Below, piece by piece: positions 2,982 through 56,419 of a stretch of 64,000 nucleotides of DNA; position 1 is the stretch's first letter; the number at the start of each line of letters is the position of its first letter. Made by a program: the position numbers and the translations under genes. The DNA comes from Escherichia coli O157:H7. GTDB taxonomy: Bacteria > Pseudomonadota > Gammaproteobacteria > Enterobacterales > Enterobacteriaceae. The stretch lies in the NCBI RefSeq assembly GCF_013167455.1, contig NZ_CP038328.1; one strand, written 5' to 3'. The notes beneath the pieces were generated by a model that did not search any database, had not been told where the DNA came from, and was given only the letters and a program-made list of their open reading frames with translations.

Positions 2982-5261
2982 ATGGATGACCAGTTAAAAC
3001 AAAGTGCACTTGATTTCCATGAATTTCCAGTTCCAGGGAAAATCCAGGTTTCTCCAACCAAGCCTCTGGCAACGCAGCGCGATCTGGCGCTGGCCTACTC
3101 ACCAGGCGTTGCCGCACCTTGTCTTGAAATCGAAAAAGACCCGTTAAAAGCCTACAAATATACCGCGCGCGGTAACCTGGTGGCGGTGATCTCTAACGGT
3201 ACGGCGGTGCTGGGGTTAGGCAACATTGGCGCGCTGGCAGGCAAACCGGTGATGGAAGGCAAGGGCGTTCTGTTTAAGAAATTCGCTGGGATTGATGTAT
3301 TTGACATTGAAGTTGATGAACTCGACCCGGACAAATTTATTGAAGTCGTCGCTGCGCTCGAACCGACCTTCGGCGGCATCAACCTCGAAGACATTAAAGC
3401 GCCAGAATGTTTCTATATTGAACAGAAACTGCGCGAGCGGATGAATATTCCGGTATTCCACGACGATCAGCACGGCACGGCAATTATCAGCACTGCCGCC
3501 ATCCTCAACGGCTTGCGCGTGGTGGAGAAAAACATCTCTGACGTGCGTATGGTGGTTTCCGGCGCGGGTGCTGCAGCAATCGCCTGTATGAACCTGCTGG
3601 TAGCGTTGGGTCTGCAAAAACATAACATCGTGGTTTGCGATTCAAAAGGCGTTATCTATCAGGGCCGTGAGCCAAACATGGCGGAAACCAAAGCCGCATA
3701 TGCGGTAGTGGATGACGGCAAACGTACCCTCGATGATGTGATTGAAGGCGCAGATATTTTCCTCGGCTGTTCCGGCCCGAAAGTGCTGACCCAGGAAATG
3801 GTGAAGAAAATGGCTCGAGCGCCAATGATCCTGGCGCTGGCGAACCCGGAACCGGAAATTCTGCCGCCGCTGGCGAAAGAAGTGCGTCCGGATGCCATCA
3901 TCTGTACCGGCCGTTCCGACTACCCGAACCAGGTGAACAACGTCCTTTGCTTCCCGTTCATCTTCCGTGGCGCGCTGGACGTTGGCGCAACCGCCATCAA
4001 CGAAGAGATGAAACTGGCGGCGGTACGCGCGATTGCAGAACTGGCCCATGCGGAACAGAGTGAAGTGGTGGCTTCAGCGTATGGCGATCAGGATCTGAGC
4101 TTTGGCCCTGAATACATCATTCCAAAACCGTTTGATCCGCGTCTGATAGTCAAGATTGCTCCTGCGGTCGCGAAAGCGGCGATGGAGTCGGGCGTGGCGA
4201 CGCGTCCGATTGCTGATTTCGACGTCTACATCGACAAGCTGACTGAGTTCGTTTACAAAACCAACCTGTTTATGAAGCCGATTTTCTCCCAGGCTCGCAA
4301 AGCGCCGAAGCGCGTAGTTCTGCCGGAAGGGGAAGAGGCGCGCGTTCTGCATGCCACTCAGGAACTGGTAACGCTGGGACTGGCGAAACCGATCCTTATC
4401 GGTCGTCCGAACGTGATCGAAATGCGCATTCAGAAACTGGGCTTGCAGATCAAAGCGGGCGTTGATTTTGAGATCGTCAATAACGAATCCGATCCGCGCT
4501 TTAAAGAGTACTGGACCGAATACTTCCAGATCATGAAGCGTCGCGGCGTCACTCAGGAACAGGCGCAGCGGGCGCTGATCAGTAACCCGACAGTGATCGG
4601 CGCGATCATGGTTCAGCGTGGCGAAGCCGATGCAATGATTTGCGGTACGGTGGGTGATTATCATGAACATTTTAGCGTGGTGAAAAATGTCTTTGGTTAT
4701 CGCGATGGCGTTCACACCGCAGGTGCAATGAACGCGCTGCTGCTGCCGAGTGGTAACACCTTTATTGCCGATACCTACGTCAATGACGAACCAGACGCAG
4801 AAGAGCTGGCGGAGATCACCTTGATGGCGGCAGAAACTGTCCGTCGTTTCGGTATTGAACCGCGCGTTGCTCTGTTGTCGCACTCCAACTTTGGTTCTTC
4901 TGACTGCCCGTCGTCGAGCAAAATGCGTCAGGCGCTGGAACTGGTCAGGGAACGTGCGCCAGAACTGATGATTGATGGTGAAATGCACGGCGATGCAGCG
5001 CTGGTGGAAGCGATTCGCAACGACCGTATGCCGGACAGCCCTTTGAAAGGTTCTGCCAATATTCTGGTGATGCCGAACATGGAAGCTGCCCGCATTAGTT
5101 ACAACTTACTGCGCGTTTCCAGCTCGGAAGGTGTGACTGTCGGTCCGGTGCTGATGGGCGTGGCGAAACCGGTTCACGTGTTAACGCCGATCGCATCGGT
5201 GCGTCGTATCGTCAACATGGTGGCGCTGGCCGTGGTTGAAGCGCAAACCCAACCGCTGTAA
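2982..5261 (+). CDS. maeB: NADP-dependent malic enzyme (malic enzyme domain fused to phosphotransacetylase-like domain)
   Basis: 759-aa [26 protein letters not shown]...; length and sequence match MaeB as recalled. Confidence 0.95.
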
Positions 5262-5553
5262 TTCTTTTTTAACTCTCACGCTTACCCTGAATATTCAGGG
5301 TAAGCGGTTTAGCTGCAATATATTAGTAAAGCTTATTACTGAGTTTGCGAATAATAAAAAAAGCAGTATATAAAATATCTCGATATTATTTTATTTATAT
5401 TCATGCGTCGCATATGAAAGTTTATTCATAACAGTAAATATCTCTCCATTCTTAGTGATCTACCTCACCTTTTAAACGCGCTTGCCGAATTTTGTTATTT
5501 ACTCTGACGAAAAATTGTCACGATACACGAAAGTTTTTCACAGGCGGCGACTC

Positions 5554-5889
5554 ATGGATAAAGAACGCATCATTCAGGAATTTGTGCCCGGCAAACAGGT
5601 CACACTGGCGCATCTCATCGCGCATCCCGGCGAGGAACTGGCGAAGAAAATCGGCGTTCCGGATGCGGGCGCAATTGGCATTATGACGCTAACTCCCGGC
5701 GAAACGGCGATGATCGCCGGTGATTTAGCGCTGAAAGCCGCCGATGTGCATATCGGATTTCTCGACCGCTTCAGTGGTGCATTGGTGATTTATGGCTCGG
5801 TGGGCGCAGTAGAAGAAGCGTTATCACAAACCGTCAGTGGTTTAGGTCGCTTATTAAATTATACGCTTTGTGAAATGACCAAAAGTTAA
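5554..5889 (+). CDS. eutS: ethanolamine utilisation microcompartment shell protein EutS
   Basis: ORF track 5482..5889; 111-aa product from internal ATG at 5554 ([10 protein letters not shown]...), BMC-domain protein at head of eut operon. Confidence 0.85.
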
Positions 5890-39661: not shown

Positions 39662-39689
39662 AAAAAAGCACCTGAAAAGGTGCTTTTTT
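39662..39689 (-). terminator. cysK terminator (symmetric hairpin with A/T runs)
   Basis: AAAAAAGCACC-TGAAAA-GGTGCTTTTTT located 25 nt 3' of cysK stop on - strand. Confidence 0.8.
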
Positions 39690-56370: not shown

Positions 56371-56377
56371 CAGGCGT

Positions 56378-56408
56378 AAAAAAGCCGGGGAATTATCCCC
56401 GGCTTTTT
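56378..56408. terminator. bidirectional rho-independent terminator between convergent pdeA and nupC
   Basis: AAAAAAGCCGGGG-AATTAT-CCCCGGCTTTTTT perfect hairpin flanked by A- and T-runs. Confidence 0.8.
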
Positions 56409-56419
56409 TATGTATGGTC

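Follow-up and report, generated by a model that had tools for sequence, protein, structure and literature searches.

A perfect palindrome downstream of Escherichia coli maeB is probably the 3'-end hairpin of a largely Rho-terminated mRNA

The DNA between maeB and the eut operon of Escherichia coli O157:H7 contains a long, perfect palindrome, which raises the question of whether this element acts in the maeB transcript, acts in DNA as a binding site, or has no function. In the stretch analyzed here, a window of 64,000 nucleotides, maeB occupies positions 2982–5261 of the plus strand (759 amino acids; stop codon TAA at 5259–5261), and eutS, the first gene of the eut operon, follows on the same strand at 5554–5889. 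Both assignments are based on the list of open reading frames and on the RefSeq annotation of 100%-identical O157:H7 records, in which the maeB product is the NADP-dependent malic enzyme MaeB. A T-rich spacer of 17 nt, TTCTTTTTTAACTCTCA (5262–5278, plus strand), separates the stop codon from a perfect 28-bp palindrome with 14-nt arms at 5279–5306 of the plus strand, CGCTTACCCTGAATATTCAGGGTAAGCG. A sequence-only reading of the region had quoted a 24-mer, CTTACCCTGAATATTCAGGGTAAG, as a perfect palindrome of roughly 24–26 bp; the 24-mer corresponds to 5281–5304, the inner part of the 28-bp element, and the length had thus been slightly understated. The same reading had placed the palindrome directly after the maeB stop codon and some 250 bp of AT-rich DNA between it and eutS, and both statements are accurate: the palindrome starts 17 nt past the stop codon, and between it and the eutS ATG (5554) lie 247 nt (5307–5553) with the composition A80 C43 G36 T88 (68% A+T). 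On the plus strand, this interval comprises a 9-nt tail, GTTTAGCTG (5307–5315), an Escherichia-specific, highly variable AT-rich spacer delimited by locus comparison (5316–5440), and a eut promoter/leader block conserved across genera, TCTTAGTGATCTACCTCACCTTTTAAA...TTGCCGAATTTTGTTATTTAC... (5441–5553).

A palindrome of this length is not readily explained by chance, as the sequence-only reading had held. When the 64-kb window was simulated 300 times with a first-order Markov model, the longest perfect-palindrome arm was always shorter than 14 nt (two simulations reached 13), and the second-longest perfect palindrome actually present in the window has 8-nt arms. In its RNA form, the element consists of a 12-bp perfect stem and a 4-nt AUAU loop, which happens to be self-complementary. 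The window contains three further perfect inverted repeats with 12–15-nt arms and 4-nt loops (56377–56410, 36707–36734, and 39662–39689), each located at an open reading frame end and flanked by an A-run and a T-run; these are canonical intrinsic terminators, apparently bidirectional ones. Since all three lie at gene ends, a perfect hairpin of such size is improbable by chance and yet normal for a gene end. The feature that distinguishes the maeB palindrome from the other hairpins in the window is the missing T-run.

Folding of the maeB 3' untranslated region yielded a stable stem-loop on the plus strand, with a free energy of about −20 to −22 kcal/mol and a z score of −6.7 relative to shuffled sequences, none of which was equally stable. 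RNA from either strand gives the 12-bp stem with the AUAU loop. A stem of 12–14 bp with a 4-nt loop, positioned 17 nt past the stop codon, corresponds to the stem-loop part of an intrinsic terminator, for which a stem of about 5–14 bp and a loop of 3–8 nt are expected. The U-tract, for which at least 5 U in about 8 nt after the stem would be expected, is not provided by the tail, GUUUAGCU; the only U-run in the E. coli tail GUUUAGCUG is UUU, in line with the weak U-tract described previously. With a weighting scheme of the d'Aubenton-Carafa type, the T-tract score of the tail at 5307–5315 is 1.56, compared to 4.5–5.6 for orthologous canonical terminators. A terminator consensus scan of 5000–5700 made no call, whereas the same scanner calls the orthologous terminator of Citrobacter. 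The tail is, moreover, polymorphic within E. coli (GUUUGG, GUCCAG, GUUUUC, and GUUUAU), and the U-run is gone in GUCCAG strains. An A-run is often present upstream of intrinsic terminators; the spacer at 5262–5278 holds a T-run, and there is no A-run upstream of the hairpin. Because of the poor and polymorphic tail, the lack of a scan call, and the missing upstream A-run, the hairpin falls short of a canonical intrinsic terminator. Its tail on the minus strand, UGAGAGUUAAAAAAG, contains no U-run, and an Rfam scan of 4800–5800 returned only sub-threshold noise.

To place the palindrome in an evolutionary context, 80 loci anchored on the MaeB C-terminus were compared, with one genome per species and three non-coli Escherichia loci among them. 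Nearly every locus carries a hairpin straight after maeB, and the kinds of hairpin differ. In about 19 loci (Citrobacter, the Klebsiella oxytoca group, Pseudocitrobacter, and Yokenella), the position of the palindrome is taken by a canonical GC-rich terminator, for example GGCGCGGG-loop-CCCGCGCC followed by a U-run, or the Citrobacter-type GGCGCGGGTTTCTCCCGCGCC followed by TTTTTATTTT. These terminators share with the palindrome the position after maeB, the orientation, a 12-bp stem, and a 4-nt loop. They differ from it in a U-run of at least five, a nearly all-G+C stem (50% G+C in the palindrome stem), and detection by the scan. Salmonella has a similar canonical terminator after maeB, with eutS located 2.1 kb further on. 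In Enterobacter, Leclercia, and others, maeB is followed by palindromic hairpins, GC-rich REP-type or otherwise, and the 2.4 kb examined downstream of the gene contain no eut operon. Among the genera compared, the CGCTTACCCTG...CAGGGTAAGCG hairpin is confined to Escherichia.

The position of the eut promoter block provides a second point of reference. The block is nearly invariant across Escherichia and common to Citrobacter, Klebsiella, Pseudocitrobacter, and Yokenella. In the latter four genera, it starts about 10 nt past the canonical terminator, whereas in Escherichia an extra AT-rich spacer of about 100–150 bp, absent from Citrobacter and Klebsiella, lies between the hairpin and the block. 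Since the sister genera hold a canonical terminator in this slot, the palindrome is the Escherichia counterpart of the maeB terminator, situated outside the conserved eut control region, rather than a eut site. Within the block, a CRP-like sequence, AGTGATCTACCTCACC (5454–5469), departs from the consensus at 2 positions and is conserved across genera; the window-wide number of CRP-like matches at 2 mismatches is not above chance. In a separate observation, the DNA between maeB and eutS of Salmonella enterica subsp. diarizonae (locus L057, 3104–5210) is not homologous to the glycosyltransferase cassette that some E. coli strains carry at the junction (see below), so the junction carries different inserts depending on the lineage.

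Within E. coli, the element is close to universal. A BLAST search with a 42-mer found it in 5409 of 5426 complete genomes, at one locus each; the two BLAST places per genome represent a single palindrome that aligns in both orientations. Exact matches number 2397 records for the O157-type 42-mer and 1196 for the K-12 type; in the latter, G5306A disrupts the terminal base pair, and the palindrome is reduced to 26 bp. A second similar site was found neither in the window at up to 3 mismatches nor in any E. coli genome at BLAST sensitivity. Membership in the REP/BIME repeats was considered and rejected: these are likewise intergenic palindromes whose RNA can fold and act as a barrier to exonucleases behind a gene, but they occur as many dispersed consensus copies, whereas the maeB palindrome has a single copy per E. 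coli genome, belongs to no dispersed family, and is unrelated to the GC-rich REP-type hairpins of the Enterobacter and Leclercia loci. In one strain, E. coli 19AR0656 (L001; NZ_CM132277.1, 4058–4830), an IS1 element directly follows the maeB stop codon; this strain lacks the hairpin and the spacer along with eutS and the 5' part of eutP.

Conservation was assessed in an alignment of 13 sequences: 10 from E. coli, picked at regular intervals along the BLAST ranking, and three from other Escherichia species (L003, L004, and L005). With regard to the hairpin, this sample is unbiased. The fraction of variable sites is 0.19 at the 3' coding end of maeB, rises to 0.65 (11 of 17) in the spacer between stop codon and hairpin (5262–5278), falls to 0.25 (7 of 28) in the hairpin (5279–5306), rises again to 0.74 (99 of 134) in the AT-rich spacer when the 9-nt tail is included (5307–5440), and reaches its lowest value, 0.13 (15 of 113), in the eut promoter block (5441–5553). 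Across Escherichia, the hairpin stands out as a conserved island with fast-evolving spacers on both sides. All 28 palindrome bases are kept in L129 and L004, which are 92.5–93.5% identical to the window and probably represent lineages of the E. albertii/E. fergusonii type. The hairpin also stays beside maeB where the downstream DNA has diverged (L003 and L005), has been deleted (L004), or has been replaced by a cassette (L135 and L151). The deletion in L004 (Escherichia coli SCPM-O-B-8794, 93.5% identical) removes about 56 bp of the AT-rich spacer, aligned to 5385–5440, and includes a block, TTTATTTATATTCATGCGTYGCATATGAAAGTTTAT, that is otherwise conserved in E. coli, L003, and L005.

The substitutions that do occur in the hairpin were examined for their effect on pairing. 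Distinct variants are those of the window, K-12, L003, L005, L121, and L174 (C5285T). Five one-sided stem substitutions, either C to U in the 5' arm or A to G in either arm, all produce plus-strand G·U pairs. The terminal G5306A, together with two changes near the loop in L121, does not follow this pattern. Double compensatory substitutions were not found among the distinct Escherichia variants. Folding energies of the variants are −16 to −20 kcal/mol for the plus-strand hairpins and −7.5 to −15.6 kcal/mol for their minus-strand versions. With few distinct variants available, the G·U bias of 5 in 6 events has a probability of about 0.1 under a 50:50 expectation and is only suggestive of selection on pairing in the maeB-sense RNA. 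The dyad in DNA is broken in L003, L005, L121, and L174, in all of which plus-strand RNA pairing is kept; the dyad as such is therefore not a conserved feature of the DNA.

Published transcriptome data address how transcription ends in this interval. Adams et al. 2021 (PMC7815308, eLife 10:e62438) identified 1078 Rho termination regions by DirectRNA-seq with and without bicyclomycin, and their Supplementary file 2 lists one of these, classed as 'orphan', at MG1655 2575860(−). Reads upstream and downstream of this position were 161 and 21 without bicyclomycin and 195 and 140 with the drug, resulting in a Rho score of 5.5 (p = 1.5e-13); the position derives from 800-nt windows and is therefore coarse, a point that the authors make for such coordinates (PMC7815308). 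Transfer of coordinates from the K-12 annotation (eutS ATG at 2575805, maeB stop at 2576098–2576100) places it at about window position 5499, some 194–195 nt past the hairpin, with another 55 nt to the eutS ATG. It is important to note that this is a single MG1655 data set and that the maeB–eutS spacer is 96–97% identical between K-12 and the O157 window. Bicyclomycin also de-represses spurious transcription in AT-rich DNA, and such transcription, without any maeB read-through, could inflate the downstream reads in the presence of the drug. On these K-12 data, termination in the spacer does not behave as Rho-independent. Even with the drug, about 28% of the drop across the spacer remains (195 to 140 reads, PMC7815308), and for this reason some Rho-independent termination or decay is also at work there.

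Base composition points to a possible site of Rho action. A C-rich, G-poor patch at 5427–5486 of the plus strand, overlapping the start of the eut promoter block, has a C/G ratio of 3.0 (C 18, G 6), which is the peak of the spacer and lies just upstream of position 5499; the first 100 nt or so past the hairpin are not C-rich (C/G 0.55–1.0). The patch is compatible with a Rho loading (rut) site on read-through maeB RNA and is regarded here as a candidate. Mapped 3' ends are not recorded at this locus in the sources consulted: the curated Term-seq table of Adams et al., which covers three conditions, has no entry for maeB and none in 25757xx–25761xx (PMC7815308), and TERMITe 2025 has no maeB entry.

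Based on these observations, a simple model would suggest that the palindrome is a 3'-end stabilizing and weak terminator hairpin of a largely Rho-terminated maeB mRNA, of the class described by Dar & Sorek; we consider this the probable explanation. RNA past the maeB stop codon would fold into the 12–14-bp hairpin. With a tail too U-poor for efficient intrinsic termination, most polymerases would proceed into the 250-nt untranslated spacer, where we infer that Rho loads, probably on the C-rich, G-poor stretch at about 5427–5486, and stops transcription before or around the start of eutS. The exonucleases PNPase and RNase II, which act in the 3'-to-5' direction, would then trim the tail back to the hairpin, and the mature end of the maeB mRNA would thereby be set and protected. 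The hairpin itself may add a minor share of pausing or intrinsic termination.

Similar gene ends have been described. Dar & Sorek 2018 (PMC6061677, NAR 46:6797) reported that E. coli transcripts terminated by Rho have their 3' ends just behind stable stem-loops that have neither a U-tract nor an upstream A-tract and that protect against PNPase and RNase II, the primary transcripts being trimmed to the stems by these two enzymes; rut signals were placed immediately downstream of the stem-loop. The maeB region resembles this class in having a stable stem-loop shortly past the stop codon, no U-rich tail, no A-tract, and bicyclomycin-sensitive read-through downstream. A region of C over G is present as well, but only from about 120 nt past the stem, not directly behind it. 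The maeB region also differs in that the class has documented 3' ends after the stems, whereas the maeB hairpin is known from its sequence and fold. The maeB hairpin thus fits the description on structural and bicyclomycin-related features, and less closely on the placement of C over G. In a similar vein, Ahmad et al. 2022 (bioRxiv 10.1101/2022.07.21.500918) used reporters to describe weak intrinsic terminators backed up by Rho for mycobacterial and E. coli genes. The resemblance lies in a sub-optimal hairpin and U-tract followed by Rho clean-up against read-through into the next operon; those genes were tested with reporters, whereas maeB is likened to them by sequence and by the K-12 Rho data.

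For the original proposal of a maeB terminator stem, the outcome is mixed, although among the three readings offered it comes closest to the evidence. The linkage to maeB, the occupation of the terminator slot, and the pairing on the sense strand speak for it; a canonical intrinsic terminator it is not, and the published bicyclomycin data indicate largely Rho-dependent termination in the spacer. The palindrome likely marks the 3' boundary of the maeB transcript, and as such would be an ordinary, already described kind of gene end. The data further suggest that insulation of the E. coli eut operon from maeB transcription is achieved mainly via Rho and not via an intrinsic terminator, which could matter when eut expression is measured in cells treated with bicyclomycin or mutated in rho or nusG. 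The locus would also offer an example of terminator turnover, with a canonical terminator in Citrobacter, Klebsiella, and Salmonella versus a U-less hairpin plus Rho in Escherichia.

Alternatively, the hairpin and its short UUU run could form a self-sufficient intrinsic terminator that releases the transcript at about 5308–5312 without Rho. The stability of the hairpin, its distance from the stop codon, and its location where sister genera hold canonical terminators all agree with such a mechanism, as do the better U-runs found behind the same hairpin in L003 (GUUUUAUU) and L005 (AUUUUUAUAUU), both with U at 6 of the first 8 positions, and the fraction of the drop that remains with bicyclomycin. 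We nevertheless regard self-sufficiency as unlikely in the window, given the low T-tract score and the lack of a scan call for a tail with UUU alone, the loss of even this run in GUCCAG strains, the missing A-tract, and the 5.5-fold increase of read-through with bicyclomycin (PMC7815308). A weak intrinsic contribution of the hairpin, as allowed for by the model of a Rho-terminated mRNA, may exist.

A different perspective is offered by strains in which the downstream DNA has been replaced. In 91 of the 5426 complete E. coli genomes, a 2.2-kb cassette takes the place of window positions 5316–5420 (L135, 3852–5838; also L151). It carries two genes, both on the minus strand and convergent to maeB, which encode a family-4 (GT4) glycosyltransferase of 356 amino acids and a GINT1_N/GH43-like protein of 322 amino acids. 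The stop codon of the 322-aa gene lies 2 nt past the hairpin, which in cassette strains is therefore located between convergent genes, and the 9-nt tail of the window, GTTTAGCTG, equals the last codon and stop codon of this cassette gene. A second cassette allele (L121 and L151) encodes a 322-aa protein with 48–65% amino acid identity and a glycosyltransferase with 90%. The convergent-gene setting could explain why the hairpin is symmetric and paired by Watson-Crick pairs only. The reading for the window is unchanged by the cassette, since the window has no convergent gene. The maeB–eutS locus adjoins what amounts to a small hot spot of structural variation.

The cassette raises the possibility that the palindrome is a functionless remnant, either a leftover 3'-end hairpin or the boundary of a variable cassette locus. 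It would once have been a terminator shared with a convergent gene, since lost from most E. coli, and would persist through low mutation pressure and linkage. The position of the 322-aa gene and the match of the window's 9-nt tail to its last codon and stop codon are what such a history would leave behind, the two divergent cassette alleles suggest an old polymorphism, and the curated Term-seq table of Adams et al. (PMC7815308) shows no 3' end at the hairpin. Against a remnant, the adjoining spacers display the fast change of unconstrained DNA at this very locus. In cassette-free Escherichia species, the hairpin is far better conserved than both of its flanks, and the changes that it has accumulated preserve pairing specifically on the maeB-sense strand. 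We thus consider a remnant quite unlikely.

A broader evolutionary proposal would combine several of these elements. In Escherichia, an ancestral strong maeB terminator would have given way to a U-poor hairpin plus a Rho stop before eutS, making read-through into eut conditional on Rho, and the hairpin would also provide the 3' end that maeB shares with an exchangeable, convergent glycosyltransferase cassette. As a whole, this scenario appears distinctly improbable to us. If it were true, basal eut expression, including that of the distal eutR, would be coupled both to the transcription of maeB and to conditions of weakened Rho activity.

Finally, the palindrome might act in DNA as an operator, with a dimeric factor binding the symmetric 28-bp site and either regulating eut or insulating it from maeB; a dimeric regulator site was among the possibilities named in the sequence-only reading. 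Symmetry in E. coli is perfect and includes the central AATATT, which is more than an RNA hairpin requires. The half-site TGAAT/ATTCA may resemble those of ArgR boxes and Cra sites, although with different spacing. A search of the literature on the maeB–eutS intergenic region returned only a low-resolution sigma S SELEX table, which reports an in vitro RNA polymerase–sigma S genomic SELEX peak of intensity 11.3 in the eutS–maeB spacer (PMC5493296). Its coordinate, 2574144 of U00096.2, corresponds to about 5230–5300 of the window, a resolution too low to relate the peak to the palindrome. An operator nevertheless seems highly improbable: the symmetry is lost in L003, L005, L121, and L174 while plus-strand RNA pairing is kept, genera with the same eut promoter block have a GC-rich terminator instead of the palindrome, the site lies about 250 bp upstream of eutS, with hypervariable DNA that can be replaced by 2.2 kb before the promoter block is reached, a second similar site is missing from the window and, at BLAST sensitivity, from all E. 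coli genomes, no CRP-like match overlaps the palindrome, and a full-text literature search with its sequence matched no paper in the library searched. The motif scan covered CRP sites.

Further possibilities found no support. A bidirectional insulator between maeB and eut, also raised at the outset, is not supported for the window, in which eut runs in the same direction as maeB; likewise, a bidirectional terminator was rejected for the window, which has no convergent gene and no U-run on the minus strand. A Xer/dif-like site was considered in view of the same 11+6+11 layout and rejected, since the palindrome has no apparent sequence resemblance to the dif consensus and is unpaired, with no second copy flanking the cassette.

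Beyond genome assemblies, a degenerate pattern scan recovered about 62 E. coli copies and a few unrelated hairpins with the same stem from metagenomes, and three unrelated matches from viral contigs. The metagenome loci were picked by a pattern that requires the stem, and as such they provide no independent evidence of stem conservation. One unrelated metagenomic family (L085, 8535–8564; L110, L130, L145, L162, L105, L124, and L154) has the stem CGCTTACTCTG-variable loop-CAGGGTAAGCG, located 15–20 nt upstream of a Shine-Dalgarno sequence and an 81-aa open reading frame (MSANRLGVIGIV...). This hairpin has no Rfam match; with its conserved stem and variable loops, it looks like a leader hairpin, and the identity of its stem with that of the maeB hairpin is probably a coincidence. 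In a set of soil metagenome contigs (L083, 4167–4196; L089, L092, L108, L136, and L137), the arrangement is CGCTTACCCTG-GCTGATAC-CGGGGTAAGCG, nested in a longer inverted repeat, AACTACTCC...GGAGTAGTT, that gives a hairpin of about 20 bp.
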